Shown here: positions 11,709 to 59,633 of the stretch, in pieces
Numbering within the stretch: position 1 is the stretch's first letter
Layout of the letters: the number at the start of each line of letters is the position of its first letter
Origin: an uncultured bacterium
GTDB taxonomy: Bacteria; Pseudomonadota; Gammaproteobacteria; Pseudomonadales; JADFDG01
Reading direction: 5' to 3'
Assembly (NCBI GenBank): GCA_965232985.1
Contig: CBDDRC010000042.1
Span: 361,907-425,906 of the forward strand
Length of the DNA: 64,000 nt
The notes under the pieces: model-generated
Seen by the model: only the letters and a program-made list of their open reading frames with translations
Databases searched by the model: none
Told to the model about the DNA's origin: nothing
Made by a program: the position numbers and the translations under genes

Positions 11709-11718
11709 TCGTCACTGC

Positions 11719-12657: not shown

Positions 12658-12668
12658 GAATATTATTC
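12656..12668. promoter_or_regulatory. MetR box 1 (TGAA-N5-TTCA)
   Basis: TGAATATTATTCA is a perfect match to the TGAANNNNNTTCA consensus. It overlaps the metR start codon. Confidence 0.6.
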
Positions 12669-12686
12669 ATAAGGCATGTGATTTAG

Positions 12687-12699
12687 TTGAGATTGATTC
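12687..12699. promoter_or_regulatory. MetR box 2 (one mismatch)
   Basis: TGAGATTGATTCA, 31 bp from box 1, immediately upstream of an AT-rich TAAATATAG -10-like element for metE. Confidence 0.45.
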
Positions 12700-12779
12700 A
12701 TAAATATAGCAGATCGACACTGCCACGCGCCCAGTCCAGCCCCGGAACCTGGGTAGCTCACCGCAAAACAGGAGCGATC

Positions 12780-15095
12780 GTGAAAGCCCATATTTCTGGA
12801 TTCCCCCGCATCGGTGCCCGACGCGAACTGAAAGTCGCCCTTGAACAATACTGGGCCGGCACATCCAGTCTTGCCGAACTGGAGGCCACCGGCCGAACCC
12901 TGCGCGCCCGGCACTGGCAGTTGCAGGCCGACGCCGGTCTGGATTTCGTGGCCGTCGGCGACTTCTCGTTCTACGACCATGTGCTCGACCAGAGCATCCG
13001 GCTGGGTGCCATCCCGGCCCGCTTGGGTGACACCCGCGCCGAATCCGGTCTCGACCTGCAATTCAGGATGGCCAGAGGCCGCCCGACCTGCGGCCACCGC
13101 CACGACAGCGGCGCCGATGCCGGCGCTTGCGAGATGACCAAATGGTTCGACACCAACTACCACTATCTCGTCCCGGAACTGCATCCGGCACAGGAATTCC
13201 GGCTGGCCTGCACGCGCCTGTACGACGAAGTACGCGAAGCGCAGCAACTCGGCTTCACCCCCAAGACCGTGCTGCCCGGGCCACTGACTTGGCTGTGGCT
13301 GGCCAAAACACCGCAGGGTGACTTTGACAAGCTCACCCTGCTGGAGCGGCTGCTGCGCGTTTACGGCGAACTGCTCGGCGGGCTTGCTGCGCTGGGCGTT
13401 GCCTGGGTGCAGCTCGACGAACCGATTCTGGCGCTTGATTTGCCGCGCGCCTGGCTGAGTGCTTTCGAGCGCGCCTACAACCAACTGCAACGGCGCGACA
13501 TCAATATTTTGTTGGCGACCTATTTTGGCCCGCTGGAAAATAACCTGTGGACAGTCTCGCAACTGCCGGTGGCCGGCCTGCACATTGATGTCACGCGCAG
13601 CGGCAACGAATGGCAACAGGTGCTCGACCGTCATGCCCCCTACAAGGTGCTTTCGCTGGGCGTCGTCGACAGCCGCAACATCTGGCGCAACGATCTCGAC
13701 AGCACCGCAACACTACTGCGCAAAGCGCATGCCCAACTCGGCGAACGCCTGTGGGTTTCAACCTCTGCCTCGCTGCTGCACGTACCGGTGGATCTCGACA
13801 ACGAAACCGGACTCGATGTCGAACAGCGTTTCGTGCTTGCCTTTGCCCGCCAGAAACTCGACGAAGTGGCGCTGTTGCGCGATGCCGTGCTGACGCCGCA
13901 CGACGAAACCGTGGTGCGCGCACTGAAAACGTCAACCTGCGCACAGCAAACCCGCCGCCGCATCTTCGGCAACCCCGACACCGCCCTGCGGGCGCGCCTG
14001 GCCGCACTCGATGCCGCTGCCGCCAACCGCGCGCACGCTTATTCGCTGCGCGCGGTTGCCCAGCAACAGCGCCTGGGATTGCCGCTGCTGCCCACCACCA
14101 CGATCGGCTCGTTTCCGCAAACACCGGCAATTCGGCACGCGCGCGCCGAACACCGAGCCGGCCGGCTCGACGCAGCCGGCTACGCGCAGGCCATGCGTGC
14201 CGAGATTGCCCACGCCGTGCAGTTACAGGAAGCCATCGGCCTCGATGTACTGGTGCACGGCGAAGCCGAACGCAACGACATGGTCGAATATTTCGGCGAG
14301 CAACTGGCGGGCGTGCTGGTAACGCGCAACGGTTGGGTCCAAAGCTACGGCAGCCGCTGCGTGAAGCCGCCGGTGATCGTCAGTGATGTCAGCCGTCCTG
14401 CACCGATGACGCTCGCCTGGGCGCGCTATGCGCAGTCCCTGAGCAGCAGGCCGGTGAAAGGCATGCTGACCGGGCCGGTGACGCTGCTGTGCTGGTCATT
14501 CGTCCGCGACGATCTGCCGCGTGCCGAGGTGGCACGCCAACTCGCCCTCGCGGTGCGCGACGAAGTGCAGGATCTGGAAAATGCCGGTATCGCGATCATT
14601 CAGGTCGACGAGCCGGCCTTCCGCGAAGGCCTGCCGCTACGCCGCAGCGCCCAGGACGACTACTGGCGCTGGGCCATCAACGCCTTTCGCGTCGCCACCG
14701 CCGGGGTGCGCGACGACACCCAGATACACACGCACATGTGCTATTCGGAATTCAACGACTGCATCGCGCAGATTGCCGCCATGGATGCCGACGTGATTAC
14801 CATCGAGACGGCGCGCTCGGCCATGGAAGTACTCGCTGCCTTCGCGCATTTCGACTACCGCAATGCCGTCGGCCCCGGCGTGTACGACATCCACAGCCCG
14901 CAGGTGCCCACCGTCGCTGCCATGCAGCAATTGCTGAGCCGCGCGGCCAGCGTCATTGCCCCGCAGCGCCTGTGGATCAACCCCGACTGCGGCCTGAAGA
15001 CACGGCAATGGCCGGAAACCCGCGCGGCGCTGGTCAATATGGTGAATGCCGCGCGCATCCTGCGGGCTGCACTGAGCGCAAATGCCGCCGTTTAG
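12780..15095 (+). CDS. metE: Cobalamin-independent methionine synthase
   Basis: GTG start after AGGAG. N-terminus VKAHISGFPRIGARRELK. 771 aa. Full-length similarity to MetE, including the C-terminal Zn-site region (HMCYSEF, NPDCGLKTR). Confidence 0.92.
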   Translation: MKAHISGFPRIGARRELKVALEQYWAGTSSLAELEATGRTLRARHWQLQADAGLDFVAVGDFSFYDHVLDQSIRLGAIPARLGDTRAESGLDLQFRMARGRPTCGHRHDSGADAGACEMTKWFDTNYHYLVPELHPAQEFRLACTRLYDEVREAQQLGFTPKTVLPGPLTWLWLAKTPQGDFDKLTLLERLLRVYGELLGGLAALGVAWVQLDEPILALDLPRAWLSAFERAYNQLQRRDINILLATYFGPLENNLWTVSQLPVAGLHIDVTRSGNEWQQVLDRHAPYKVLSLGVVDSRNIWRNDLDSTATLLRKAHAQLGERLWVSTSASLLHVPVDLDNETGLDVEQRFVLAFARQKLDEVALLRDAVLTPHDETVVRALKTSTCAQQTRRRIFGNPDTALRARLAALDAAAANRAHAYSLRAVAQQQRLGLPLLPTTTIGSFPQTPAIRHARAEHRAGRLDAAGYAQAMRAEIAHAVQLQEAIGLDVLVHGEAERNDMVEYFGEQLAGVLVTRNGWVQSYGSRCVKPPVIVSDVSRPAPMTLAWARYAQSLSSRPVKGMLTGPVTLLCWSFVRDDLPRAEVARQLALAVRDEVQDLENAGIAIIQVDEPAFREGLPLRRSAQDDYWRWAINAFRVATAGVRDDTQIHTHMCYSEFNDCIAQIAAMDADVITIETARSAMEVLAAFAHFDYRNAVGPGVYDIHSPQVPTVAAMQQLLSRAASVIAPQRLWINPDCGLKTRQWPETRAALVNMVNAARILRAALSANAAV

Positions 15096-15135
15096 TTCAT
15101 GCGCGCTGGCTATCGGTGCAGGCATCAACCATCAC

Positions 15136-17829
15136 TCAGCCGGTATTGCGCATACCCGCAGCAATGCCGGCAATGGTGACTTTCAGTGCCAGATCGATCG
15201 CCGGATCCACCGCGGCGCCGGCGGCGCGATGCCGACGAATCAATTCCGCCTGCAACAAATGCAGCGGATCAACATAGGGATTGCGCACGGCGATCGACCA
15301 CTGCGTGATCGGGTTGGTCTCCAGCAGGGTCTTGCGCCCGGCAAGCACGAGCAAATCCCGAATCGTTGCCTCAAGACGGGCACGCAACGCACTGCCAAGC
15401 GGCCGCAACGACGCATCAGCAAGATGGGCCTCATAATGCGCAGCGATGCGCGGCTCGGCTTTCGCCAGCACCATTTCCAGCATATCGATCACCGCCTGAA
15501 AATACGGCCAGCGCGCCAGCATCGCCGCGAAATCGGCCTGGCGTTCGGGATGGACGCGCAACCAGGCCAGCGCGGTGTCGGTGCCGAGCCAGGCGGGCAG
15601 CATCAACCGCACCTGCGTCCAGGCGAACACCCAGGGAATTGCCCGCAACGATTCGAGACCACCCTGGGCACGCCGTTTCGATGGCCGTGAGCCGAGCGAC
15701 AATGTTGCCAATTCCTGTTCCGGCGTTACCGTTCGCAAGTAATCGACAAAACGCGCCTCGCCATGCACTACCTCGCGATAACCCGTCACCGCAACAGCGC
15801 TCAGTTCGTCCATCAGCTCACGCCATGCCGGTTCCGGCGCCGGCGGCGGCAACAGCGTCGCTTCCAGGGTCGAGGCAACGTACAACTCAAGATTTTCCAG
15901 TGCCACGCCGAACAGGCCGAACTTGAAACGAATCATCTCGCCCTGCTCGGTTACGCGAATGCGGCCATTCACCGAACCGGGCGGCTGCGACAACAACGCC
16001 TGTCGCGTCGGCGTACCGCCGCGACTCACCGAGCCGCCGCGCCCATGAAACAATTCCAGGCGCACACCCTGCCGGGCGCACACCGCCGTGAGCGTTTCCT
16101 GGGCACGGTACTGCGCCCAGCTCGCGGCAAGATAGCCGGCATCCTTCGCCGAATCCGAATAGCCGATCATCACCTGCTGGTAATCACCGGCGTGCGCGCG
16201 GTAACCCGGCAAGGCCAGCAAGGCATCAATCGTGGCCGGCGCCTGATCGAGATCAGCGAGCGTTTCGAACAATGGCACCACCGGCAGCAACTCGCGCACC
16301 CCGGCCACATGCTGCAACAGGCAAACGGCGAGCACATCGGACGGCGCATGCGCCATCGAAATCACGTAGGCGCCAAAGGCACCACGCGGCATCGCGGCGA
16401 GCATGTCGAAGGTGTCGAGCACCTCGCGCACCGGCGCATCGCATAAAGGCGAATCGCGGAAATCCCTGCCCACCAGCGGCCGCCGGTTGCCCAGTTCCGC
16501 CAGCAGGAACACCTGTTTTTGCGCCTCCGGCCAGGCACGATAATCGCCAATTCCCAACCACTGGGTGATCGCAGCGAGCGCATCGCCATGGCGCGTCGAT
16601 TCCTGCCGGATGTCGAGCCTGACCAGACAAACGCCGAAGGTTGCAGCACGGCGCAGCGTATCGGCAAGCAGGCCATCGGCGATGCGTTCAAGACCGCAGG
16701 CCACCAACGATTGGTGCGCGAGCAACAGCGGCGCGCGCAGCTCGTCGTCTGAGGCGATGATCGGCCCGCAATCGATCTCGCGATTGGCCAGTTGCGCTGC
16801 GGCCCAGTCGCGGGTATTGCGCAAGCGATCACGCAAATCCTTCATCAACGCGCGATACGGCTCACGCGTATCGCCAACCGCCGCCCGCAACGCATCGCTG
16901 GCAAGGTGCATCGACAACTCACCTTGCAATATTTCCACATCGCGCAGAAAAAGTTCGGCGGCTTGCCAGCGCGCCAGCAAAATGACTTCCCGCGTCACCG
17001 CGTGCGTGACGAAGGGATTGCCATCGCGGTCACCGCCCATCCAGCTGGCGATACGCACCGGCGCGCAATCCAGCGGCAGCGCCTCACCGGTATGTTCGCG
17101 CAACCAGCGATCAAGCTCGCGCAAAAAATGCGGCAGCGCGTACCAGAGCGTTTGTTCGATGGTCGCAAAACCCCACTTTGCTTCATCGACAGGGGTCGGG
17201 CGGGCGCGGCGAATCTCATCGGTGTGCCAGGCTGCCGACACCAGGCGGCGCAGATCGTCTCGCGCCGCGTTCCGCTCGTCCGGGGTCAAGTCATCGTGAT
17301 CGAGATCCGCAAGCCGGCGCGCGATATCGTCGTACTTGTGCATCAGGGTGCGGCGGGTGATTTCCGTCGGGTGCGCAGTCAACACCAGCTCGATCGACAG
17401 CGCGCGCACTGTTGCCACAATTTTTTCCCGCGCGGTACCAGTGCGCGTCAGCGCCGCAGCCAGCGCGCTCAGCGAACCTTCCTCAGGTGGCCAGCGGCAG
17501 GCAATCACCGCCTGCCGGCGCATGCGCACCCGGTGGTGCTGCTCGGCGATGTTGGCCAGGTTGAGAAACTGGTTAAAAGCGCGGACGACGTGCAGTAATT
17601 CATCGCCGTCAAGGCGCGCGAGTTCCGGCGGCAACACGGCAGCATCGACCCGCCCCGCACGGGTATCGACCGAGAGGCGGCGCAGGTGCTCGATGCGCGC
17701 AAACAGCGGCTCGCCGCCATGTTCGCGCAACGTGCCGCCCAGCATGTCGCCCAGCAACCGCACGTTTTCGCGCAGCGGCGCGTGCGGGTCGGCAACATCG
17801 GTCGAAGAACTGGCCGGCGAATCGGTCAT
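15136..17829 (-). CDS. ppc: Phosphoenolpyruvate carboxylase
   Basis: 897 aa from ATG 17829 (MTDSPASS...). TAHPTE motif, GYSDSAKDAG, and a C-terminus ending in MRNTG. Confidence 0.93.
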   Translation of the reverse strand: MTDSPASSSTDVADPHAPLRENVRLLGDMLGGTLREHGGEPLFARIEHLRRLSVDTRAGRVDAAVLPPELARLDGDELLHVVRAFNQFLNLANIAEQHHRVRMRRQAVIACRWPPEEGSLSALAAALTRTGTAREKIVATVRALSIELVLTAHPTEITRRTLMHKYDDIARRLADLDHDDLTPDERNAARDDLRRLVSAAWHTDEIRRARPTPVDEAKWGFATIEQTLWYALPHFLRELDRWLREHTGEALPLDCAPVRIASWMGGDRDGNPFVTHAVTREVILLARWQAAELFLRDVEILQGELSMHLASDALRAAVGDTREPYRALMKDLRDRLRNTRDWAAAQLANREIDCGPIIASDDELRAPLLLAHQSLVACGLERIADGLLADTLRRAATFGVCLVRLDIRQESTRHGDALAAITQWLGIGDYRAWPEAQKQVFLLAELGNRRPLVGRDFRDSPLCDAPVREVLDTFDMLAAMPRGAFGAYVISMAHAPSDVLAVCLLQHVAGVRELLPVVPLFETLADLDQAPATIDALLALPGYRAHAGDYQQVMIGYSDSAKDAGYLAASWAQYRAQETLTAVCARQGVRLELFHGRGGSVSRGGTPTRQALLSQPPGSVNGRIRVTEQGEMIRFKFGLFGVALENLELYVASTLEATLLPPPAPEPAWRELMDELSAVAVTGYREVVHGEARFVDYLRTVTPEQELATLSLGSRPSKRRAQGGLESLRAIPWVFAWTQVRLMLPAWLGTDTALAWLRVHPERQADFAAMLARWPYFQAVIDMLEMVLAKAEPRIAAHYEAHLADASLRPLGSALRARLEATIRDLLVLAGRKTLLETNPITQWSIAVRNPYVDPLHLLQAELIRRHRAAGAAVDPAIDLALKVTIAGIAAGMRNTG

Positions 17830-17971
17830 GGTCGTCTCCCCACCCTGTATCGCCCCACGGGGCGTGCCAAGCGCAGGCCCGGCCCCTATGATAGGCGCTC
17901 CAGACCCGGCGCACCGTTTCTGCTCGCGACGAGCACCGGCCCTTCCAACGGCAGCAACAAGAAGTCGATTC

Positions 17972-18994
17972 ATGTCCCTGGCCATTTTTGATCGCCCGTC
18001 GCTCTACCTCGAGCTGGGCGGCCGCGTCCTGTTTGCCCTGCTCGCATTCACCTATTTTTTGGGCATTCCTGCCGAATTGTGGGCCATCAATCTGCCGGTC
18101 ACCGTGGCCGGGCTGATCCTCTATCTTGGCGCGCAGGCAGCGCTGTTCACCCGGCAACTGCGCGGCCGCAATATCGGCTGGATCGTACCGGCTGCGGCAT
18201 TGACCGATGCGGTTGCTGTGCTCGGTGCCGTCGCCTGCGATCCTTACCCGGTACCGCCGTCACTGCTGCTGATCTTGATTGCCGCACTCAATCTTGGCCT
18301 GCGCCAGAGCCGGCTGACCTTCGTGGCTGCCGTGGCCGGTGCCGGCGCGCTGATGGCGGCCACGCCCGGCCTGCGCGCGCAACTGCAGGGCGAGGTCGCA
18401 GCCCGGGAATTCCTGTTTGCCCTGGCGTTCATCCTGGCGTGTCTTGTTTACTTCGCGCTGCAGGCCTGGCGGCGCCATGCGCTGCAAACACAAGCCGCCC
18501 GCTGCGCCGAGCAGGACGTCGAAACCCAGCTGCTGAACCGCCGCGGTTTCGAGAGTGCCGCCCGCTTCCTGGTGCCCTTGCTGCAGCGCACACAGTCGCC
18601 GCTGGTGGTCATGCTGGCCAGCCTCGACACCCAAACAGCAAAACCACTCGTTGCCCGAACACTCGCCAGTGCGGTACGCCGGGTCGCCCATCTGGTGCGT
18701 CAACGCGCGCGCCGTAGCGATGTCGTTGCCCGCCTGTCGGAAGACGAGTTTTTATTCATGCTGTTCGATACCCCGCTCGCCGGCGGCGAAACACTCGCGC
18801 GCGCACTGCTTGAGGATTTCAATGCCTGGGCTGCGCAACAGACGCTCGATGCCCGCATTACCTTCGCCATGATCGTCACACCGGAAGGCCCGGTAGCCAT
18901 CGACCAGTTGATTGCCCGTGCCCGCCATGCCGTGCAGCGCGCCCAGAAACATCCCAGCTCGCCAGGCGTTGTTACGGCCCCGCCGCTGCGCTGA
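17972..18994 (+). CDS. Membrane protein with a degenerate GGDEF domain (SEDEF) and a retained RxxD I-site
   Basis: Several N-terminal hydrophobic helices. The C-terminal GGDEF fold reads RRSDVVARLSEDEF. The 212 codons upstream in the ORF track are antisense to ppc and were trimmed. Confidence 0.75.
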   Translation: MSLAIFDRPSLYLELGGRVLFALLAFTYFLGIPAELWAINLPVTVAGLILYLGAQAALFTRQLRGRNIGWIVPAAALTDAVAVLGAVACDPYPVPPSLLLILIAALNLGLRQSRLTFVAAVAGAGALMAATPGLRAQLQGEVAAREFLFALAFILACLVYFALQAWRRHALQTQAARCAEQDVETQLLNRRGFESAARFLVPLLQRTQSPLVVMLASLDTQTAKPLVARTLASAVRRVAHLVRQRARRSDVVARLSEDEFLFMLFDTPLAGGETLARALLEDFNAWAAQQTLDARITFAMIVTPEGPVAIDQLIARARHAVQRAQKHPSSPGVVTAPPLR

Positions 18995-33719: not shown

Positions 33720-34727
33720 TCAACGGCGCGGCATCCAGCCCTGCAGCATTTTCAGGTAATTGACGCGCTCCAGGGCATGCGCGTTGGGCGCCTTTTCCAG
33801 CGACAGCACCCCACGTGCCGCATCAACCGACGGGTAACCTTTCTCGCCCAGCCACCAGTCGAGCTCCTCGACCACACCTTTCAGGCGCGAAACGCCGTTA
33901 TCCAGCAGCGCCGATACCATCTGCACCGACTGCGCGCCGCAAAGGATCGCCTTGGCAGCATCGAGGCCGGTATGCACCCCGCCACTGGCCGACAGGCCGA
34001 TGTCGATGCGGCCATGCAGCAGGGCAAGCGCGTGCAGGCGCAACGGCAACTCGGCACTGGTGGATGTCACCAGCGTACGGTCGACATCCAGCGTGTCGAG
34101 ATTCACGTCCGGCTGCCAGTAACGGTTGAACACAACGACGCCAGCGGCACCGACCTCGGCAAGTTGGCGCACGAAGCCGGGAACCGATGCATAAAATGGC
34201 GACAGCTTTACCGATACCGGCCGCTCCACTGCGGCCACGACCGTGCGCACGACCTCAAGTTGCTGCGCCTCAACCTCAGCGCCGGACAGCAGCGGATCGG
34301 TGACCACTTCATAAAGGTTCAGTTCGATCGCGTCGGCACCGGCATCAGCGAGCAGGCGCGCATACTCAACCCAGCCGCCCGGCGTGACGCCATTGAGTGA
34401 GGCGATCACCGGCACCTCGACGCGCGCACGCATGCGCCGCAGATGCCCGAGGTAGCGGTCAACGCTGAGCGGGAAAACATCGCTCGAAGGCAGCAACGAA
34501 CGCGCCTCGGCATCGGTATCAAGATGCGCGTCGAAATGCCGGTGCTCACCCAACTGTTCGAGAATAAGCTGTTCCTCGAACAGCGAATGCAGCACCACCG
34601 CGCCGGCACCGGCTTCGACCAGCATCGCGACTTTTTCCACGTCGTCGCCCAATGGCGAGGCGCCGATCACGAACGGCGTGCGCAACGAAAGCCCCAACCA
34701 ACGCGTTTTCAGTTCGGCCATGGCCAT
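33720..34727 (-). CDS. Dihydroorotate dehydrogenase-like (PyrD-fold TIM barrel) protein
   Basis: About 335 aa. The layout of LRTPFVIGASPL...GAGAVVLHSLFEEQ...NGVTPGGW...SVKLSP...FNR...SGGV resembles class-1 DHOD-like flavoenzymes. Confidence 0.65.
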   Translation of the reverse strand: MAMAELKTRWLGLSLRTPFVIGASPLGDDVEKVAMLVEAGAGAVVLHSLFEEQLILEQLGEHRHFDAHLDTDAEARSLLPSSDVFPLSVDRYLGHLRRMRARVEVPVIASLNGVTPGGWVEYARLLADAGADAIELNLYEVVTDPLLSGAEVEAQQLEVVRTVVAAVERPVSVKLSPFYASVPGFVRQLAEVGAAGVVVFNRYWQPDVNLDTLDVDRTLVTSTSAELPLRLHALALLHGRIDIGLSASGGVHTGLDAAKAILCGAQSVQMVSALLDNGVSRLKGVVEELDWWLGEKGYPSVDAARGVLSLEKAPNAHALERVNYLKMLQGWMPRR

Positions 34728-34797
34728 GGCCCTCCTGCGGCCAATCAAACGGCAACATGTATCGCAAGGGCTCGTGCAAAACGGCAGGCAAGCCAAT

Positions 34798-34882
34798 TGG
34801 TGCGCCAGGAGGGACTTGAACCCCCACGGATTGCTCCACTGGAACCTAAATCCAGCGTGTCTACCAATTTCACCACTGGCGC
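34798..34882 (-). tRNA. tRNA-Leu (anticodon UAG)
   Basis: 85 nt. 7-bp acceptor stem GCGCCAG/CTGGCGC, anticodon stem-loop CTGGA-TTTAGGT-TCCAG, long variable arm, GGTTCAAGTCC T-arm, encoded CCA. Close to E. coli tRNA-Leu(UAG). Confidence 0.93.
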
Positions 34883-34935: not shown

Positions 34936-35763
34936 TCACTGACTGCCGATCTGGCGGTAAAGCTGGCGAATATCCGCAGCCATTTTGTCAGTCTTCTGGG
35001 CAAGCGACTTCAGCTGCGCCTGGGCATCACCACCGCCCGTACCGGTGCGCGGTGCGCCGGCAAGCTGCTCGTTGAGCGTTGCCACGCGGGCACCGACCTG
35101 CTCGATCTGTGCAAGCGCCAGCTTCGCGTCCTTCGCACCGCCGGCCGCCAGTGTGCGGATCTCGCCGACCTGCACGGTGATGCTCGCAACCTCATTGGCA
35201 ACCATATCAAGATCGTTGCGCAGGCTACGGATACCGGCGCTCAATTGCAGCGTATTGATGCGGCCGGGCGCATCCAGTTTCTCTGCGTCAGCCGATGCCG
35301 CACTGAGCTGCTCCTCCAGCTTGGTAATGCGCTCCGCAGCTGCCTTGAGCTTGACCTCGAACTGCTCATTCTGTGCGACAGGTGCAGCGGCGGCACCACC
35401 GGACAGCACGGCGTAACCTGCCAGCAGCAACGCCAACCCCGCCAGCCCCGCGGCAACCCATGTCGCCGCCGGGATTCTTTCTTTCAGCAAAGAGTCTGCC
35501 CCGCGCGCCGCAGGCCGCCTTGCCGAGCGGGGGGGCGCCGCAGTCGGTATCGCCGGCGGCTCCGGGGAGCTGACCTTGAAGACGTCCTGCGACGACGGCA
35601 TTGCCTTGCGCTCGCTGCGCTCAGCCGTGCGCTCGGGCGCCTCCTGCCGCGGCGGTTTTTCCGCATGGGCAGGCGACGCCGGTTGCCGGGGAACCGCAAT
35701 GACATCCTGACTGAGCGTGGACAGCCGGCTTTGCTTGTCCTTGTTGTCGGGCGGAGCAGCCAT
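34936..35763 (-). CDS. Bitopic membrane protein with a Pro/Arg-rich N-terminus and a long Ala/Gln/Leu-rich coiled-coil ectodomain
   Basis: Single TM AATWVAAGLAGLALLLAGYAVL; heptad-like remainder; ends in ADIRQLYRQIGSQ. No recognisable family. Confidence 0.6.
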   Translation of the reverse strand: MAAPPDNKDKQSRLSTLSQDVIAVPRQPASPAHAEKPPRQEAPERTAERSERKAMPSSQDVFKVSSPEPPAIPTAAPPRSARRPAARGADSLLKERIPAATWVAAGLAGLALLLAGYAVLSGGAAAAPVAQNEQFEVKLKAAAERITKLEEQLSAASADAEKLDAPGRINTLQLSAGIRSLRNDLDMVANEVASITVQVGEIRTLAAGGAKDAKLALAQIEQVGARVATLNEQLAGAPRTGTGGGDAQAQLKSLAQKTDKMAADIRQLYRQIGSQ

Positions 35764-35872
35764 GGTGAACCTGTCGAGACAAACCTGCCTGGGAGGAAGC
35801 ACCCGGACTGGCGGGCGTCATTCAGACCGCGACATTAGCACGCACCGTCAACCGGACGCAGTGCGACGCCTC

Positions 35873-36709
35873 TCAACGCCGTTGATACAACTCGGCAACC
35901 TGCTGATTAAGGCGATCAATGGTGGCGTTGACCTGCCGGCGAAACGCGTCATTGGAACCGACGGCCTGCTCGGTCGCCTTTAATCGCTTGCCATGGTCAT
36001 CCTGCAGATCGCGAACGGTAGCCCCGAGCGCGGCGACCTCCGAACGCAATTGCGCGGCGTCGCCATTGCGGGCGAGCCTGACCAGACCCTCCGCCTGGGT
36101 AGCCTGGCGGGCGGCAAGCTGGTCGATGCTCTCTGCTGCAGCCTTGAGGCGCGTGTCGAGTTGTGCGTCTGTCTGGGTGCCGGTCTGATCGGCCTTGCGC
36201 AATTCCGTGGCAATGCTTCGCAGTTCGCCCTCAAGCCCGGCCCGCGTCCGTGTCTCCTGCTCCAACTGACGTGACAACCGCGCCAGGTTGTCATTCAGTC
36301 TGCCGATATCCGCCGCGATCAGATCAAGTGACTTCTGCGTTTGTGAGTCGCTGCTCTTGAGGGTTGTGTTGGTGCTCGCCACCCGCGTTTCCAGCGTGGC
36401 CACCGAATTGCGTGCCGTGGCCTCGAGCACCGCCAACCCGCGACCCAGTTCGCGCTGCTGCAACACCAGGAAAATAACCACGCCAACCAACAACAGCCCC
36501 AGCCCACCGAGCGCCAACACCGCGACGAACAGCGGCGGCCGGCGCGGTGGCGCAGCCGGGCCGGACCCTGGCGGGACAACCGGGCGCTGGCCGGTACGCG
36601 TGACATCAAGGGTATCGGCACCCACACGCGGCTCGCCGGCACCACGGCCGGCCGCATCGACGGTGGAAAGATCGCCGAGATTTACGTCACGCCGGGTCTG
36701 ATCGATCAT
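35873..36709 (-). CDS. Paralogous bitopic coiled-coil membrane protein
   Basis: Same architecture: TM LFVAVLALGGLGLLLVGVVIFLVL, coiled coil, C-terminus QQVAELYQRR. Start taken at ATG 36709 (GGAG 9 nt upstream); GTG 36730 is also possible. Confidence 0.55.
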   Translation of the reverse strand: MIDQTRRDVNLGDLSTVDAAGRGAGEPRVGADTLDVTRTGQRPVVPPGSGPAAPPRRPPLFVAVLALGGLGLLLVGVVIFLVLQQRELGRGLAVLEATARNSVATLETRVASTNTTLKSSDSQTQKSLDLIAADIGRLNDNLARLSRQLEQETRTRAGLEGELRSIATELRKADQTGTQTDAQLDTRLKAAAESIDQLAARQATQAEGLVRLARNGDAAQLRSEVAALGATVRDLQDDHGKRLKATEQAVGSNDAFRRQVNATIDRLNQQVAELYQRR

Positions 36710-36749
36710 CTGCCGCCACTCCGGCAGCACCCGGTCAGCGCGGTGACTT

Positions 36750-37454
36750 TCATCCGCCGTTGCCCGGCGCAGGCTTCTGCGCCGGCGTTTTTTTCACGGC
36801 AGCGGCCTTGCCTTTGGCAGCGGCCCCTTTGGCGCCGGCAGCAGGTGTCTTCGGCGCGGGGGCTGCAGCTGCCGATCCATGTTCGAAAATCGGATTCACG
36901 CCAGGCTGATACACCGTGGTGCCCAGCACCAGCTTGCCGTTCTCGCGGACGTAGGGGATGAAGACCAAGCGCGGCGCACCGCGACGATGATCAACCTCGG
37001 CGCGGATACCGTTGACGCGCATCGTGCCGTCCGTGGTCGGCACCGACGTCGGCGCCACGGTGACGGCGGCAACCACGTCGGGTTTCGCCGCCTGCGCGCG
37101 GGTCGCGAGGAAAATCTGGCGGAACATCTCGATCGGCGGCGGCGGGTTCGGTTTGTTCCAGCGCACCGCCTGCAGCTTGCCGTCGGTCATCAGCAGGACG
37201 CCATAGGGAGCAAAGTCATCCCCTTTCTGCAACGGTGCGGATGCCCCCTGCACCGCCATCTCGACCAGCTTGTTCATTTCCACGACGACGTCAGCCGGAA
37301 TTTCATCGGCCGTTGCCGCAGGCACTGCCGCAACGGCCGCCGCCGGGGGATTTGCAGCCGGGGAAGTCGCCGGGTCAACGGGTTTGTTTTCGGCAACGGC
37401 AACCTGTGCCAGGCCAGCCAGCACAACCACCAACGCCGGAATCAGCTTTTTCAT
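36750..37454 (-). CDS. Secreted protein of unknown function with a Lys/Ala/Pro-rich C-terminal tail
   Basis: Signal peptide MKKLIPALVVVLAGLAQVAVA, a globular core, and the tail AAPAPKTPAAGAKGAAAKGKAAAVKKTPAQKPAP. Confidence 0.6.
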   Translation of the reverse strand: MKKLIPALVVVLAGLAQVAVAENKPVDPATSPAANPPAAAVAAVPAATADEIPADVVVEMNKLVEMAVQGASAPLQKGDDFAPYGVLLMTDGKLQAVRWNKPNPPPPIEMFRQIFLATRAQAAKPDVVAAVTVAPTSVPTTDGTMRVNGIRAEVDHRRGAPRLVFIPYVRENGKLVLGTTVYQPGVNPIFEHGSAAAAPAPKTPAAGAKGAAAKGKAAAVKKTPAQKPAPGNGG

Positions 37455-37626: not shown

Positions 37627-38811
37627 ATGTCCAGCCAAGACGCCATTGTCATCGTCAACGCCGCCCGCACCCCGATGGGTGGCCTGCAGGGCAGCCTGGC
37701 CACGCTCACGGCACCGGAACTCGGTGCCGTCGCCATTCGCGAGGCCATCACCCGCGCCGGCCTTGCGCCGGCAGATGTGCAGGAAGTGATTATGGGTTGC
37801 GTGCTGCCCGGCGGCGTCAAGCAGGGCCCGGCGCGGCAGGCGATGCTGCAGGCCGGCATCCCGGCAAGCAGCGGCGCCACCACGATCAACAAGCTGTGCG
37901 GCTCGGGGATGAAGGCGACGATGCTCGCGCACGACCTGATTCGCGCCGGCAGCAACGACATCGTGGTCGCCGGCGGCATGGAAAGCATGTCGCAGGCACC
38001 CTATGTGCTGACAAAAGCGCGCAGCGGTTATCGCCTCGGACACGGCGAACTGAAGGACCACATGTTTCTCGACGGCCTCGAAGACGCGCAGACCGGGCGC
38101 CTCATGGGCTCCTTCGCCCAGGATGTCGCTGACCAGGAAGGCATCAGCCGGGAAGACATGGATGCCTTCGCGCTGGAATCACTCAAGCGCGCCCAGAATG
38201 CCATCCGCAGCGGCGCCTTCAAGGCCGAGATTGTCGGGGTGCCGGTGCCGGGAAAATCCGGCGAAACACTGGTGCTTGATGACGAGCAACCACTGAACGC
38301 GAAACCGGAAAAAATTCCCACCCTGAAACCCGCCTTCAAAAAAGACGGCACTATTACCGCTGCCAACTCGTCGTCGATTTCCGACGGCGCCTCGGCGATC
38401 GTGCTGACGCGCGCATCGGTGGCGAGCGCACGCGGCCTGAAAGCGCAGGCGCGCATCGTTGCGCATGCGACACATTCACGTCACCCCGGTGAATTTACTC
38501 TCGCCCCGATCGGCGCCATCGAAAAGGTGTTGGCCAAAGCCGGCTGGAAAACCGGCGATGTCGAGCTGTGGGAAATCAACGAAGCATTCGCCATGGTCAC
38601 CATGCTGCCGATGCGCAAGTACGGCCTCGATCATGCAACGGTGAACGTCTACGGCGGCGCCTGCGCCCTGGGTCACCCGATCGGCTCTTCGGGTTCGCGC
38701 ATCATCATCACGCTGATTCATGCGCTCCGGCAGCATGGCAAGAAAAGGGGGGTGGCGGCACTGTGCATTGGCGGCGGCGAGGCCACGGCGGTGGCGATCG
38801 AACTGCTCTGA
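37627..38811 (+). CDS. Acetyl-CoA C-acetyltransferase (thiolase II)
   Basis: 394 aa. NKLCGSGMKA active-site Cys and the C-terminal GGACALGHPIG and CIGGGEA motifs. Confidence 0.9.
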   Translation: MSSQDAIVIVNAARTPMGGLQGSLATLTAPELGAVAIREAITRAGLAPADVQEVIMGCVLPGGVKQGPARQAMLQAGIPASSGATTINKLCGSGMKATMLAHDLIRAGSNDIVVAGGMESMSQAPYVLTKARSGYRLGHGELKDHMFLDGLEDAQTGRLMGSFAQDVADQEGISREDMDAFALESLKRAQNAIRSGAFKAEIVGVPVPGKSGETLVLDDEQPLNAKPEKIPTLKPAFKKDGTITAANSSSISDGASAIVLTRASVASARGLKAQARIVAHATHSRHPGEFTLAPIGAIEKVLAKAGWKTGDVELWEINEAFAMVTMLPMRKYGLDHATVNVYGGACALGHPIGSSGSRIIITLIHALRQHGKKRGVAALCIGGGEATAVAIELL

Positions 38812-38864
38812 ACCCACATCGGCGTTCCCGGTCATGCGCGGGGAACGCCAATCCCGGGCACATC

Positions 38865-38894
38865 TTGTGACCGGACGGTCACAGCCTCTAGAAT
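38865..38894 (+). promoter_or_regulatory. Sigma70-like promoter (TTGTGA-N18-TAGAAT) overlapped by the palindrome TGTGACC-N4-GGTCACA
   Basis: -35 at 38865-38870, -10 at 38889-38894, palindrome at 38866-38883. About 60 nt upstream of the acyl-CoA synthetase ATG. Confidence 0.5.
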
Positions 38895-38953
38895 CGCTGC
38901 TTTCGCTGCCCGCATTCACCCCGCCCCCGGCAAAAACCGAGATACCGAGTCCC

Positions 38954-40666
38954 ATGGCTGCCACCGAAGCCCTCCAGGATCGTCCCTGGCACAAGATCTA
39001 CCGTGAACTGGGTGTCGCGCCCGCAGCGCCGAAAATCGCTGAACGCAGTCTGGCCGACATCCTTGAGCAACACGCTCGCGAGCGCCCCGATCAGGCCGCA
39101 CTCGAGTACCTCGGCATCACCCTCACCTGGCAGCAACTCGATACCTGCGCCAATCGCTTCGCCAACCTGATCAAGTCGCTCGGCATGAAAAAAGGCGATG
39201 TGCTCGGCGTGCACCTGCCGAACACGCCGCAATATGTCGTCGCGCTCATCGGCGCCAGCAAGCTGGGCGTTGCCGTTTCCGGCATCTCGCCGCTGCTCAC
39301 CACACCGGAAATCGTCCACCAGATCAACGACGCCCGAATCAAGGTGTTGCTCACTCTCGACAAACTGTTCAACGGCGCCGTCGCAAACGCCGGTAAAGAC
39401 ACACCAACCCTGCAACATGTGCTGGTATCGGGTGCCATTGATTTCCTGCCGGGCTGGAAAAAGTGGCTCGCCTACACGCTGAAAAAAATCGCGAAGGTGA
39501 CGCTGCAGCCGATGACCGACACCCAGGTTCACAACTACTGGGCGGTGTTGCAATCATCACCGACGCAACGCGTCCACACGCCGCTTGCCTTCAACGATAC
39601 GCTCTACATCCAGTACACCGGCGGCACTACCGGCAAACCCAAGGGCGCCGAACTGACCCTGCGCAACATGCTCGCCAATGCCCGCCAGGGCGAAGCGTTC
39701 AGCCCCTACGAGGTGGGCAACGACACCATCGGTGCGGCCTTTCCGTTCTTTCACATGGCCGGCCTGTCGCTGGTGCTGGTCGCGCTGCAGAATGCCGCAC
39801 GTTTCCTGGTGATTCCCGACCCGCGCGACGTCAAGCACTTCTGCGCCGTGATGAAAAAATACCCGCCGACGGTGCTCGCCAATGTGCCGACGCTGTACAT
39901 GCTGCTCAGCGACACACCGGAATTCCGCGAGATCGATTTTTCGCGTTTACGCATTGCCCTGTCGGGCGCGGCGCCTTTTCCGGTCGAAGCCATCCGCAAG
40001 CTTGAGGCGATCATCGGCGAGAAAAAACTCTGCGAGGTGTACGGGATGACGGAGGCAAGCCCCCTGCTCACCTCCAATCCGGCCGGGCGGCCGAAAATCG
40101 GCTCGGTCGGCATCCCGGTGATCGGCACCGACATCCGTATTGTCGATGTGGAAACCGGCACCCGGGAAATGCCGCTCGGTGAGCCCGGCGAAATCATCGC
40201 CCGCGGCCCGCAGATCATGAAGGGTTACCTGAACCTGCCGGAGGCCAGCGCGAACACGCTGCGCACGTTCGACGGCCACACCTACCTGTATACCGGCGAC
40301 ATCGCGACCATGGACAGCGAGGGCTACCTCACCATCTGCGACCGCAGCAAGGACATGCTGATCGTCGGCGGCTACAAGGTGTTCTCGGTCGAAGTGGAAG
40401 GAAAACTCAAGGAGCTGCCGTTTATCGAGTTGTCGGCTGTCATCGCCGAGCGCGATGTGGCGCGCCCCGGCAACGACATCGTCACGCTGCACCTGCAGCT
40501 CACCGCCCAAGGCAAGCAAGGCGAGCGCAAAGACATCGAAGCGCAGGTAATGCAGTTCTGTCGCGACAACATGGCTCCCTACAAAGTGCCGAAGAAAATC
40601 TACTTCCACGATGCGCTGCCGCTCACAGCCGTCGGCAAGCTCGACAAGAAAGCGCTGCGCAACTAA
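38954..40666 (+). CDS. AMP-dependent acyl-CoA synthetase/ligase (FadD-like)
   Basis: YTGGTTGKPKGA AMP-binding motif, GYKV and the C-terminal K of the ANL fold. 570 aa from ATG 38954. Confidence 0.85.
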   Translation: MAATEALQDRPWHKIYRELGVAPAAPKIAERSLADILEQHARERPDQAALEYLGITLTWQQLDTCANRFANLIKSLGMKKGDVLGVHLPNTPQYVVALIGASKLGVAVSGISPLLTTPEIVHQINDARIKVLLTLDKLFNGAVANAGKDTPTLQHVLVSGAIDFLPGWKKWLAYTLKKIAKVTLQPMTDTQVHNYWAVLQSSPTQRVHTPLAFNDTLYIQYTGGTTGKPKGAELTLRNMLANARQGEAFSPYEVGNDTIGAAFPFFHMAGLSLVLVALQNAARFLVIPDPRDVKHFCAVMKKYPPTVLANVPTLYMLLSDTPEFREIDFSRLRIALSGAAPFPVEAIRKLEAIIGEKKLCEVYGMTEASPLLTSNPAGRPKIGSVGIPVIGTDIRIVDVETGTREMPLGEPGEIIARGPQIMKGYLNLPEASANTLRTFDGHTYLYTGDIATMDSEGYLTICDRSKDMLIVGGYKVFSVEVEGKLKELPFIELSAVIAERDVARPGNDIVTLHLQLTAQGKQGERKDIEAQVMQFCRDNMAPYKVPKKIYFHDALPLTAVGKLDKKALRN

Positions 40667-40712
40667 CCACGCAAGTCACATCCACGTCGTTTTCTGTTGA
40701 GAAATATCCCGC

Positions 40713-42608
40713 ATGCAGAGGCTTCCTGTCATCGTCGGTTTCGGCGGCATCAACGCCGCCGGACGCAGCTCCTTCCACCACGGCTATCGCCGTATGACCC
40801 TCGACGCATTACCCGCTGCCGATCGCATTCCGGCGCTGCTGGGTCTTGCCACGCTCACCGGTCGCCTCGTCCATCGCAACGGCCACTTCGAAGATGCTGG
40901 CGGCAACGTGCTGGCGCCAGCGGATATCGAGTCCACCCTCGGCGCGGCCTTGCGCGATGCCACCTGCGTGCGCCGTATCGAAGCGGAACATTTCGATACC
41001 GAGGCGATTTCCTATAACCGGCGCGTCGCCCTGAAAGCCGGCAGCGGGCCGATCCGGGTTGTGCTGCGCAAGCGCGATATGCCGGATACGTTGCCCGCAA
41101 ACTGGTCGATCGTTGCGACGCATGCAGACGATGTCGAGATTGCTATCGCCGAGGGCATCGAGATTCTGCTGCCTGCCACCCGCAAAGCGGGCGTGCGTTC
41201 TGCCGGCCAGTTGCCGCAGGGCTTCGATCCGGGTGCGCTCTACGCGTCGCATCACCATCCGCGCGGATTGCAAATGGCCGTGTTCGCCGCCTCGGACGCC
41301 CTGCTCGCCACCGGCCTCGACTGGCAGGCGATTCGCAACATGCTGCCGCCGGATCAGGTGGCCGTGTATGCCAGCAGCGCGATGGGTCAACTCGATGACC
41401 CGGGCTTCGGCGGCATGATGAAGGCCGCCGCCAACGGCAAGCGCACCTCATCGAAGCAATGCCCGCTGGGCTTCCCGGAAATGCCTGCCGATTTCATCAA
41501 TGCCTATGTGCTCGGCAATGCCGGCGCCACCGGCGGTATGCTCGGTGCCTGCGCAACATTTTTGTACAACCTCGAAAAAGGGATTCGCGACATCCGCTGC
41601 GGCAAACGCCGCGTAGTGTTTGTCGGTGCTGCCGAGGCGCCGATCGTGCCGGAAGTGATGGAAGGCTATCGCGCCATGGGCGCGCTCGGTGAAGACAGCG
41701 ATCTGCTCGCACTCGATCCGCACCGCAGCGAACCGGATCATCGCCGCGCCGTGCGCCCGTTCAGCACCAACATCGGCTTCACCATCGCCGAGAGCGCGCA
41801 GTATCTGGTGCTGATGGACGATGCGCTGGCACTGGAGCTGGGCGCGTTCATCCACGGCGCCGCCCCCGAGGTGTACATCAACGCCGACGGCTACAAGAAA
41901 TCGATTTCCGCGCCCGGTGCCGGCAACTACATCACGATGGCCAAGGCTGCCGCCTGCGCCCGGGCGCTACTGGGCGAGGAGGCGTTGCGCCGGCACACTT
42001 TCGTGCATGCGCACGGCACCGGCACCCCACAAAACCGCACCACCGAATCGCATGTGCTCAACGAAACCGCGAAAGCCTTCGGCATCGAACGCTGGCTGGT
42101 CGCGGCGATCAAGTGCTATGTAGGGCATTCGATCGGTGCGGCGGCCGGCGATCAGATCGCCGCTGCGTTAGGCACCTGGGCTCACGGCATCGTGCCCGGC
42201 ATCGCCACCATCAATCATGTCGCGCCCGACGTGAACGACTCCCACCTCGACATCTCGCCTGCGCACCGCGAGGTCGGCCCTGACGGCATGGCGGCAGCGC
42301 TGATCAACGCGAAGGGCTTCGGTGGCAACAATGCCACCGGTGTCATCCTGTCACCGCAAGCCACCCGGCAACTGCTGGCTGCGCGCCACGGTGCGCGTGC
42401 GCTCGACAACTGGCAACACCAACATGAAGCAATCGCCACAGCAGCCGGCGCCTACGATGCCGCCGCAACGCGCGGCGAGTATGCGCCGCTTTACCGCTTC
42501 GGCGAGGGCGTGATCGACGGCAAACAGGTGCGCATTACCGATCGCGCCGTGCACCTGCCAGGCTTTGCATTGCCGGTGCGCCTTGACGACGATCTGTCGG
42601 GCGCCTGA
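40713..42608 (+). CDS. fabY: FabY-type beta-ketoacyl-ACP synthase (KAS I/II-fold initiation enzyme)
   Basis: 631 aa. The N-terminus MQRLPVIVGFGGINAAGRSSFHHGYRRM resembles my recollection of Pseudomonas FabY (PA5174) (from memory, not aligned). Cys-His-His triad contexts GACATF, HGTGTPQN and YVGHSIGAAAG. Confidence 0.75.
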   Translation: MQRLPVIVGFGGINAAGRSSFHHGYRRMTLDALPAADRIPALLGLATLTGRLVHRNGHFEDAGGNVLAPADIESTLGAALRDATCVRRIEAEHFDTEAISYNRRVALKAGSGPIRVVLRKRDMPDTLPANWSIVATHADDVEIAIAEGIEILLPATRKAGVRSAGQLPQGFDPGALYASHHHPRGLQMAVFAASDALLATGLDWQAIRNMLPPDQVAVYASSAMGQLDDPGFGGMMKAAANGKRTSSKQCPLGFPEMPADFINAYVLGNAGATGGMLGACATFLYNLEKGIRDIRCGKRRVVFVGAAEAPIVPEVMEGYRAMGALGEDSDLLALDPHRSEPDHRRAVRPFSTNIGFTIAESAQYLVLMDDALALELGAFIHGAAPEVYINADGYKKSISAPGAGNYITMAKAAACARALLGEEALRRHTFVHAHGTGTPQNRTTESHVLNETAKAFGIERWLVAAIKCYVGHSIGAAAGDQIAAALGTWAHGIVPGIATINHVAPDVNDSHLDISPAHREVGPDGMAAALINAKGFGGNNATGVILSPQATRQLLAARHGARALDNWQHQHEAIATAAGAYDAAATRGEYAPLYRFGEGVIDGKQVRITDRAVHLPGFALPVRLDDDLSGA

Positions 42609-59265: not shown

Positions 59266-59287
59266 ATCTCCCACAATCCGCGCCGCC

Positions 59288-59505
59288 ACAGGTGCCCGCG
59301 CTACGGCGCGGGTTGAACGGGAAGCAGGTCGGTGTGCATTGCCCGCAAGAGCAAAGCCACCCAGCCTGCGCTGCCCCCGCAACGGTGATTGACGCAAGGC
59401 GACGGCAGGACGATCGAACCCACCGGGTTTCGTAATCCAGCCACTGTGCCGTAAGGCCGCAGGCTTCCTGCCTGCACCGGCCCCACGCATGGGAAGGCGC
59501 CGCCC
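59288..59505 (+). promoter_or_regulatory. Cobalamin (B12) riboswitch
   Basis: GGTGCC..., AACGGGAAGCAGGTCGGTG, GCTGCCCCCGCAACGGT, B12-box CAGCCACTG and GGGAAGGC, in the canonical order, upstream of a TonB-dependent receptor. The boundaries are approximate. Confidence 0.75.
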
Positions 59506-59633
59506 GCTGCACGCATTGTGCGTGCCGTCATCAGCCCGGATACCGGCCTCGTGGTGCATGCATCCGCCTTCCCAAAATGGCCGGTGCGTGTCCCCACAGT
59601 TTTCATGCGCGGTGGGCGCATGCAGGAGAGCCG

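Follow-up and report, generated by a model that had tools for sequence, protein, structure and literature searches.

A stretch of 64,000 nucleotides from an uncultured gammaproteobacterium (GenBank assembly GCA_965232985.1, contig CBDDRC010000042.1, positions 361,907 to 425,906), here called the window, carries three adjacent genes, A, B and C, immediately upstream of a leucine tRNA gene. This triad is real and is conserved as a gene set. A is predicted to be exported, and B and C are predicted single-pass membrane proteins with long coiled coils. At somewhat less than even confidence, we propose that A, B and C make up a conserved, previously undescribed envelope module in which B and C form a stalk, A is their partner and a contact is made with the cytoplasm.

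All three genes, and every feature within them described below, lie on the minus strand. Gene A (open reading frame (ORF) 36750-37454) encodes 234 amino acids (aa) with the layout of an exported protein: a signal peptide, an Ala/Pro linker, an alpha+beta core and an Ala/Pro/Lys tail. Gene B (ORF 35873-36709) encodes a putative single-pass membrane protein of 278 aa with a long coiled coil, and gene C (ORF 34936-35763) encodes a 275 aa single-pass coiled-coil protein that is a paralogue of B. The tRNA-Leu(UAG) gene (34798-34882, minus strand), called by both ARAGORN and Rfam, is immediately downstream of C, so that the three same-strand genes followed by tRNA-Leu(UAG) described in the original prediction, which was made from the letters of this region alone, were recovered in full. 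Alternative ORF starts are available at 36730 or 36709 for B and at 35802 or 35763 for C; ATG 36709 and ATG 35763 are favoured by family alignments and by the gene calls in relatives. As the intergenic gaps are 40 nt (A-B) and 109 nt (B-C) and there is no convincing terminator between the genes, A, B and C are likely co-transcribed; a promoter and terminator scan of the cluster gave nothing above shuffled expectation. The GC content of the cluster (0.62-0.68) is like that of its flanks, and by this match the cluster is native DNA. A genomic island at the tRNA was considered and rejected on GC content and synteny.

A word-indexed search of 5.8 billion proteins identified 15 homologues of A, 52 full-length homologues of B (44-98% identity) and 17 homologues of C. 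The close homologues all come from metagenomes or metagenome-assembled genomes (MAGs) labelled Pseudomonadota or Gammaproteobacteria, and every contig with a close homologue of A, B or C has the order A-B-C, divergent from a thiolase gene. The same arrangement is present in the more distant lineages L034 and L036, the order being maintained to approximately 25-35% identity. When compared with hidden Markov models (HMMs) built from all loci, the window proteins matched at 1e-61 (A), 8e-64 (B) and 2e-76 (C). The triad can be defined by an exported domain with the pattern GxFYPF ... DG ... [DE]H[RxG]xP ... PY (A), by DA[FY]RRQVN near the C-terminus (B), by an N-terminal RLxxLxQD[VI][IL]AV and a C-terminal D[IV]RxLYR (C), and by tRNA-Leu(UAG) after the three genes; all of these are found in the window. 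Marine triads belong to Alcanivorax, including A. jadensis T9, strains DSM 26293 and MD8A, and complete genome CP179933.1. Here the order is ketoacyl synthase and thiolase (minus strand), sodB (plus strand), A, B, C, tRNA-Leu(UAG) and, further on, DUF1289 and DUF2846. Among 32 triad loci checked, Alcanivorax included, 29 have tRNA-Leu after C, and the other three have little sequence past C. The macro-synteny of the window is that of Alcanivorax minus sodB, which indicates that the window organism is an uncultured relative of the Alcanivoracaceae, order Pseudomonadales in the sense of GTDB. The triad stays contiguous as its surroundings vary, with differences in sodB, in a PFOR gene that follows the tRNA in L009, in a prophage (L121) and in the genes further downstream. 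Conserved synteny of the three genes had been put forward as a check, and A-B-C(-tRNA-Leu) was indeed found both in every close relative and in Alcanivorax.

To place the triad more widely, GTDB species genomes and metagenomes were scanned. The GTDB scan found the triad in seven MAGs, and single B-like genes carrying DAFRRQVN in cultured Zooshikella, Endozoicomonas, Pseudohalioglobus and other Halieaceae, as well as in Porticoccaceae and Ketobacteraceae MAGs. A metagenome scan seeded with distant B-like proteins added 80 further loci. Loci were typed using HMMs, and the counts that follow are of non-redundant loci with at least 1 kb on either side of B. A, B and C occur together in 20 loci, among them the complete Alcanivorax genome CP179933.1 (3 of these have a small insertion between A and B, and 2 have overlapping stop-to-stop ORFs), B and C occur without A in 2 loci, and B occurs alone in 32. 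In one locus (L029, Ketobacteraceae), A lies two genes upstream of B and there is no C. C was found without B in zero loci. The two loci lacking A carry an unrelated lipoprotein in its place. A adjoins B in 20 of the 22 loci with C as opposed to 1 of the 33 without C (Fisher p 9e-12, uncorrected for phylogeny).

Several features of these loci are of interest in their own right. The Fe-superoxide dismutase gene sodB lies between thiolase and A, on A's strand, in L042, L044, L045, L050, L055, L119-L124 and others. It has been lost from this position in the window lineage, and the whole window is without sodB. An A-like gene standing by itself (L037) also has sodB beside it, as does the single B-like gene of Endozoicomonas (L023), in that case with sodB on the other strand. 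We did not retain the argument that different flanks prove linkage of the triad, as the sodB flank of L036 belongs to the same ancestral block (thiolase-sodB-A-B-C-tRNA). In the Alcanivorax-type contig L121 (JGI Ga0589542_000165), a filamentous-phage-like prophage (11466-18534) encoding an integrase, Zot, Phage_Coat_B and DUF2523 directly follows the triad's tRNA-Leu and takes the place of genes found in other Alcanivorax contigs. Based on this position, tRNA-Leu(UAG) appears to serve as a phage attachment site. In L029 (4517-10189 of the locus, Ketobacteraceae MAG chromosome OZ244969.1), the genes for the A-like exported protein and the B-like protein share a strand. Between them lie genes for an alpha/beta-hydrolase and an NAD-dependent epimerase-like protein, and a GGDEF-EAL gene is found upstream in divergent orientation; the spacing of A and B is similar in L077. 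The lone B-like genes of Zooshikella and Endozoicomonas are followed by a gene for a putative lipoprotein of approximately 350 aa (L019 11136-12215, L023 10727-11752) with no Pfam or NCBIfam match, and this lipoprotein may be an alternative partner of B in these genera.

Scans of Pfam, NCBIfam, PADLOC and PHROGs returned nothing for A and sub-threshold coiled-coil noise for B and C, and the B-like singletons gave coiled-coil noise or nothing. In PADLOC, which covers anti-phage defence, this noise consisted of matches at E ≥ 0.002 to JetC, LmuB and DruC. PDB sequence and profile searches with A, the A-core family, B and C produced only designed coiled coils, tropomyosin, ApoE and chance matches. 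A literature search found no paper on the A, B or C proteins. By sequence comparison, the three families are absent from the curated libraries searched. The original prediction recognised no family for any of the three, and this was confirmed: no curated threshold was reached in Pfam or NCBIfam, and the homology searches placed none of the proteins in a known family.

B and C are built on a common plan. Each contains a single strongly hydrophobic stretch, in agreement with the one membrane segment predicted for each. The transmembrane helix of B spans aa 60-83 (36461-36532; Kyte-Doolittle 19-residue window up to 2.9; predicted local distance difference test (pLDDT) 84-91) and that of C spans aa 99-121 (35401-35469; up to 2.04 at aa 103-121). 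An N-terminal region of 90-125 aa had been described for both proteins; the single-pass layout is indeed common to the two, but the N-terminal region of B has only about 59 residues. At the start of B is a motif (aa 1-15, 36665-36709) with the consensus M-T-D-x-T-R-R-D-I-x-L-G-D-L-S, predicted to be cytoplasmic, in which D8, G12, D13 and S15 are near-invariant; paired B proteins of the Alcanivorax type also carry R-[DE]-[IV]-x-L-G-[DN]-[LI]. A Tat signal based on the TRRD of this motif was ruled out, as the motif is 50 residues from the hydrophobic segment. C has two N-terminal motifs. Motif 1 (aa 8-25, 35689-35742; K-x-K-Q-x-R-L-S-T-L-S-Q-D-V-I-A-V-P) is predicted to be cytoplasmic and is present in 24 of 30 C proteins, Alcanivorax included, in the form K-x-x-R-L-x-x-L-x-Q-D-[VI]-[IL]-A-V. 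Motif 2 (aa 56-64, 35572-35598) reads P-x-x-Q-D-V-F-[KR]-V. The N-terminal motif sequence of C is RLSTLSQDVIAV, and the near-invariant columns of this region are K10, L14-V24, P56 and Q59-F62.

The remainder of each protein is a coiled-coil region with invariant columns (B aa 84-278, 35876-36460; C aa 122-275, 34939-35400). When hydrophobicity was subjected to Fourier analysis along the family alignments, the dominant period after the helix was exactly 3.5 residues in both families, with z-scores of up to 7 in windows along the alignments. This period indicates true heptad coiled coils rather than low-complexity disorder, so the heptad-like regions of the original prediction held up and the disorder alternative was not borne out. 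In B the region is interrupted by an almost invariant break, TLKSxDSxTQKSL (aa 116-128, 36326-36364; family alignment), and it closes with the near-invariant motif SxDAFRRQVNATIDRLNQQVxELYQRR (aa 252-278, 35876-35956). The C-terminal motif of C in the family alignment is QAQLKxLxQKTDKMAADIRQLYR (aa 249-270, within 34939-35025). B ends in ...YQRR and C in ...IGSQ, and both have the ending ...[VI]xxLY[QR] in common, consistent with the related C-termini previously noted. The conserved polar C-terminal helices and the N-terminal motifs may represent specific binding surfaces. In the structural model, B forms helices at residues 60-115, 121-215 and 218-277 with a predicted template modelling score (pTM) of 0.27, and because of this score the monomer is expected to be extended and unpacked. 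Foldseek found no match for the B model.

The length of the coiled coil varies little. Paired B proteins have a median of 196.5 residues after the helix (range 189-208, 34 proteins), single B proteins have a median of 189 (interquartile range (IQR) 188-196.5) and C proteins have a median of 157.5 (IQR 154-164, 32 proteins). This post-helix length is nearly constant despite identities of 25-50% among the proteins. With respect to orientation, lysine and arginine residues within 15 residues of the helix are more numerous before it than after it in single B (2.9 vs 0.95) and, family-wide, in C (1.75 vs 0.88), and both B and C have charged N-terminal regions of 60-100 residues without a signal peptide. 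The Lys/Arg bias and the charged, signal-less N-termini favour an orientation in which the N-terminus is inside and the coiled coil is periplasmic. The compartment to which A is predicted to be exported is the one favoured for these coiled coils.

Several lines of comparison show that B and C are paralogues. The relationship, which had been anticipated from their shared architecture, is not visible by pairwise BLASTP (insignificant, E 0.1) but stands at the profile level. Alignment of the narrow B and C families using hhalign gave a probability of 90% (E 1.7e-6), and with broad alignments (88 B and 30 C proteins) this rose to 97.7% (E 2.2e-12), the match spanning the transmembrane helix and first coiled-coil segments in register. 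Non-iterated HMM cross-matches recovered 28 of 30 and 87 of 88 sequences at E<1e-3 and no other ORF among 4470; within the window, the C HMM matches B at 2.5e-9 and the B HMM matches C at 1e-5. The singleton B-like proteins bear the B-type C-terminal motif. The simplest history would be that a lone ancestral B was duplicated to give B and C, and that A was then recruited. The duplication of B to C would be placed in the lineage of the window organism and the Alcanivoracaceae.

A is predicted to be exported. Its N-terminus, MKKLIPALVVVLAGLAQVAVA|EN, has the n-h-AxA layout of a signal peptide (aa 1-21, 37392-37454): MKK, a hydrophobic region with its maximum at aa 4-22, and AVA|EN. The cleavable signal peptide expected for A is consistent with this layout, from which cleavage was predicted by rule and not by a dedicated predictor. 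The same layout is present in nearly all A proteins with an assignable start, including that of every triad locus. A contains no cysteine. Its core domain (aa 50-190, 36885-37307) is modelled by AlphaFold2 (16-sequence alignment) with pLDDT >90 in the order alpha-alpha-beta-beta-alpha followed by five beta strands, and is flanked on the N side by a disordered Ala/Pro linker and on the C side by a disordered tail. Invariant residues in the family alignment are D79, F81, Y84, D91-G92, P105, I150-R-A-E-V-D-H-R157, G159 and P161, the core motif being IRAEVDHRxGxP. Foldseek comparison of the A model to PDB, the single library of solved structures searched, gave no match at E<1e-3 and none below E 0.05; comparison to BFVD matched uncharacterised phage proteins only.

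The core of A has a much wider distribution than the triad. A profile search of 1.84 billion cluster representatives identified 278 distant relatives, most of them 130-200 aa long; some have a signal peptide and others lack one, and there are fused and tandem forms. None carries a Pfam domain, and a Pfam and NCBIfam scan of 82 members of this wider family gave no domain match. The cytoplasmic protein P0137 contains three tandem copies of the core domain. In P0122 and the lipoprotein P0108 the core is joined to other N-terminal domains, and in P0097 several hydrophobic stretches precede it. As judged from these sequences, the A core is a reusable module, used inside and outside the cytoplasm, that lies outside Pfam.

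The Ala/Pro/Lys-rich tail of A (aa 195-234, 36753-36872) is predicted to be disordered (pLDDT <50). Its approximately 40 residues are 70% Ala, Pro or Lys and have a net charge of +7. Two earlier proposals concerning this tail were not upheld. The first was that it resembles KPAA tails; no tandem KPAA array is present, and Tandem Repeats Finder reported only a marginal 15-nt repeat of 1.9 copies. The second was that it is a basic segment binding peptidoglycan or anionic envelope polymers. The tail is confined to the window's high-GC lineage, where its net charge lies anywhere between -2 and +8; in Alcanivorax, the A proteins (167-182 aa) stop right after the core domain without any tail. Because it is lineage-restricted, variable in charge and absent in Alcanivorax, the tail cannot provide the core mechanism, and is a lineage-specific addition that is dispensable for core function.

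From these features we infer the topology of B and C, their formation of a complex, the reach of the resulting stalk and its biological role as follows. B would be the ancestral component, an inner-membrane protein with its N-terminal motif in the cytoplasm and its coiled coil of approximately 195 residues in the periplasm. C would have the layout of B with a shorter stalk of approximately 157 residues and a different N-terminal motif. A, a soluble protein exported by Sec, would have become associated with the B/C pair. The coiled coils of B and C may associate, giving a fixed-length stalk that is anchored in the inner membrane and extends into the periplasm. Its reach would be approximately 20 nm if helix 1 of B runs on into helix 2 and helix 3 is folded back, and approximately 29 nm if fully extended; by this modelling, a reach of 20-29 nm would be enough for the peptidoglycan or the outer-membrane zone. 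A would bind the periplasmic part of B/C, and the conserved N-terminal peptides of B and C would dock on a cytoplasmic partner. Conservation in B and C is highest in the N-terminal motifs, which are predicted to be cytoplasmic, so the system probably contacts something in the cytoplasm too; their conservation implies a conserved partner on that side of the membrane. The module may thereby link the cytoplasm and inner membrane to the outer layers of the envelope, either physically or informationally. The original prediction was of a periplasmic scaffold. A periplasm-spanning scaffold is plausible, but the purely periplasmic form does not fit the conserved, predicted cytoplasmic N-terminal motifs. 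A more specific version, a new trans-envelope apparatus of Alcanivoracaceae-like Gammaproteobacteria, is doubtful: B and C would form a heteromeric stalk of approximately 20 nm that couples a cytoplasmic partner to the peptidoglycan or outer-membrane zone, is capped or regulated by A, and acts as a ruler, tether or mechanical relay, having evolved from a B-only homo-oligomer that persists in Halieaceae, Zooshikella and Endozoicomonas.

A number of observations weigh against such an envelope module. The single-chain model of B has a pTM of only 0.27, and the positive-inside signal is neutral in paired B (1.82 vs 1.85). No peptidoglycan-, outer-membrane- or lipid-binding domain was found in the Pfam and NCBIfam scans. 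The loci are phylogenetically non-independent, so the Fisher p overstates the association of A with C. A is not obligatory, given the two B-C loci without A and the many lineages in which B works alone. Finally, the wider block (ketoacyl synthase, thiolase ... DUF1289, DUF2846) is syntenic as well, and the gene order may therefore partly reflect descent.

This last point is the basis of an explanation that we consider distinctly improbable, namely that A, B and C are unrelated neighbours whose order has been kept by regional synteny by descent across Alcanivoracaceae-like bacteria. The conservation of the larger block, which also includes the tRNA-Leu, would be expected in that case, as would B-like genes functioning alone in other families. 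However, the triad has remained contiguous despite the changes around it (sodB, the PFOR gene of L009, the prophage of L121 and the genes further downstream), A is found together with C far more often than with B alone, and all three products are predicted to be in one compartment. A rather unlikely, though by no means negligible, alternative to an envelope stalk is a signalling or regulatory device, in which the N-terminal motifs sequester or activate a cytoplasmic factor and the coiled coils and A sense the envelope, in the manner of RseA/RseB and sigma-E. Across very divergent lineages no part of B or C is better conserved than the N-terminal motifs, as would be expected of docking peptides; soluble, exported A tracks C like RseB with RseA; and the cluster adjoins sodB in Alcanivorax-type genomes. 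Yet no sigma factor, kinase or transcription factor is consistently adjacent in the loci of relatives, Pfam and NCBIfam revealed no homology to anti-sigma or sensor families, the adjacency to sodB is lost in the window lineage, and so narrow a range of stalk lengths would sooner be expected of a structural element.

It is conceivable, if quite remote, that B and C are cytoplasm-facing coiled coils that coat or organise lipid inclusions, similar to phasins, TadA or HBHA. The neighbouring genes (thiolase, acyl-CoA synthetase, ketoacyl synthase, thioesterase and patatin), the hydrocarbon-degrading, wax-ester-storing habit of Alcanivorax, the phasin-like character of Ala-rich amphipathic helices and a weak ApoE profile match for C (E 0.009) are in keeping with this. 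Against it, A is predicted to be exported, the Lys/Arg bias and long charged N-terminal regions favour N-in, C-out, there are no phasin matches in Pfam or NCBIfam, and B-only loci elsewhere are not beside lipid genes (for example, tsf-B-fumA in Halieaceae). We give hardly any credence to the cluster being a mobile-element or phage remnant at the tRNA-Leu, such as a spanin-like lysis cassette, and this is largely refuted by the conserved chromosomal position, which is constant across lineages at only 25-35% identity. A tRNA gene is adjacent, a filamentous prophage occupies this tRNA in L121, the A fold matches only uncharacterised phage proteins in BFVD and C has weak PHROGs matches to Rz-like spanins (E 0.03-0.05). 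The PHROGs matches are at noise level, however, and the cluster is upstream of the tRNA with a GC content like that of its flanks and no adjacent integrase or phage gene in the window.

With regard to the surroundings of the cluster, a thiolase gene lies upstream of A in divergent orientation and a DHO-dehydrogenase-like gene follows the tRNA. The thiolase gene is part of a lipid-metabolism block (window 37636-42600, plus strand) that also contains a gene for a 570-aa acyl-CoA synthetase-like protein; the version of this block in relatives adds a 631-aa ketoacyl synthase, with RF3 beyond, and is syntenic from the window lineage to Alcanivorax. An ORF at window 34546-34839 (minus strand), starting MEQSVGVQVPPGAP..., was rejected as a gene, being a translation artefact across the tRNA-Leu gene; equivalents recur in L018, L034 and L036. 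Besides tRNA-Leu, the sole Rfam match in the window is a cobalamin riboswitch aptamer (RF00174) at 59273-59563 (plus strand; 56 bits, E 3e-11).

The triad brings together three families without a Pfam, NCBIfam or PDB entry in one conserved module, carried by an ecologically important group that includes both Alcanivorax, the main oil degrader of the sea, and uncultured relatives. If B and C indeed make a fixed-length stalk with a cytoplasmic partner, the module would represent a new type of element that organises or senses the envelope, and its evolution could be followed clearly from a single B, through a B/C pair, to a B/C pair with A. If these are merely accessory structural proteins with mild phenotypes, the outcome would be one more annotated group of conserved hypothetical proteins. 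As the triad is present in cultured, genetically tractable Alcanivorax and single B in cultured Zooshikella, Endozoicomonas and Halieaceae, the proposal is directly testable.

By analogy, the kind of system proposed here appears to be a familiar one, in which bitopic proteins with periplasmic coiled coils act with a soluble partner (PilN/PilO/PilP, TolA, spanins and RseA/RseB). The tail of A has a Lys/Ala/Pro-rich, low-complexity composition similar to that of the KPAA tails of AlgP, PhaF and histone H1. Those tails are cytoplasmic, DNA-binding tandem KPAA arrays, whereas A, which bears the tail, is predicted to be exported, and the tail itself is non-tandem and variable in charge and is absent in the Alcanivorax orthologues. 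Phasins differ in that no phasin model in Pfam or NCBIfam matches, and the signal peptide of A and the charge bias of B and C favour a periplasmic placement. As proposed for B and C, Lpp is a periplasmic heptad coiled coil whose fixed length sets an envelope distance, and its C-terminus (...YRK) is superficially like ...ELYQRR of B and ...QLYRQ of C. However, Lpp is an outer-membrane lipoprotein of 58 residues that carries a lipobox Cys and is cross-linked to peptidoglycan through its terminal Lys. B and C lack both a signal peptide and a lipobox, their anchor is a transmembrane helix, and their last residues are RR and SQ, respectively (NCBIfam Lpp match E 0.55). Cross-linking of B or C through the C-terminus, as in Lpp, was ruled out because there is no terminal Lys.

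TolA has an inner-membrane anchor, a long Ala-rich helical region thought to span the periplasm, and soluble and outer-membrane partners. It does not have an N-terminal cytoplasmic extension, whereas the helix starts at residue 60 in B and 99 in C; its globular domain III (TolA_C/TolA_bind_tri) was not found in B or C using Pfam and NCBIfam, and tolQ, tolR, tolB and pal are not among the neighbouring genes (thiolase, acyl-CoA synthetase, DHO-dehydrogenase-like gene and DUF1289). The Rz i-spanins are type II bitopic inner-membrane proteins whose periplasmic coiled coils reach across to a partner. The matches of C to Rz are at noise level only (PHROGs E 0.03-0.05), Rz has no long N-terminal cytoplasmic region, and the present cluster lacks an o-spanin lipoprotein and a phage context and has a conserved chromosomal position. 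RseA and RseB provide another parallel, in which a bitopic protein has a binding region at its cytoplasmic N-terminus and a soluble, exported partner binds its periplasmic part, but there is no homology and no adjacent sigma factor, and the periplasmic parts of B and C are predicted to be long coiled coils.

The pairs PilN/PilO and GspL/GspM also invite comparison. No family model for PilN, PilO or GspM in Pfam or NCBIfam matches B or C down to E = 1, and no pilM, pilP, pilQ, secretin or gsp genes are nearby in the window or in relatives. In contrast to PilN and PilO, B and C do not continue into a globular domain beyond the coiled coil, which is itself three to four times longer. The likeness is one of layout: in these systems, as in B and C, two paralogous bitopic inner-membrane proteins are encoded side by side. 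PilN/PilO have a short conserved cytoplasmic N-terminal peptide (that of PilN binds PilM), one transmembrane helix, and a periplasmic coiled coil for heterodimerisation, and a third envelope protein, PilP, is attached to the pair, much as A is proposed to associate with the B/C pair.

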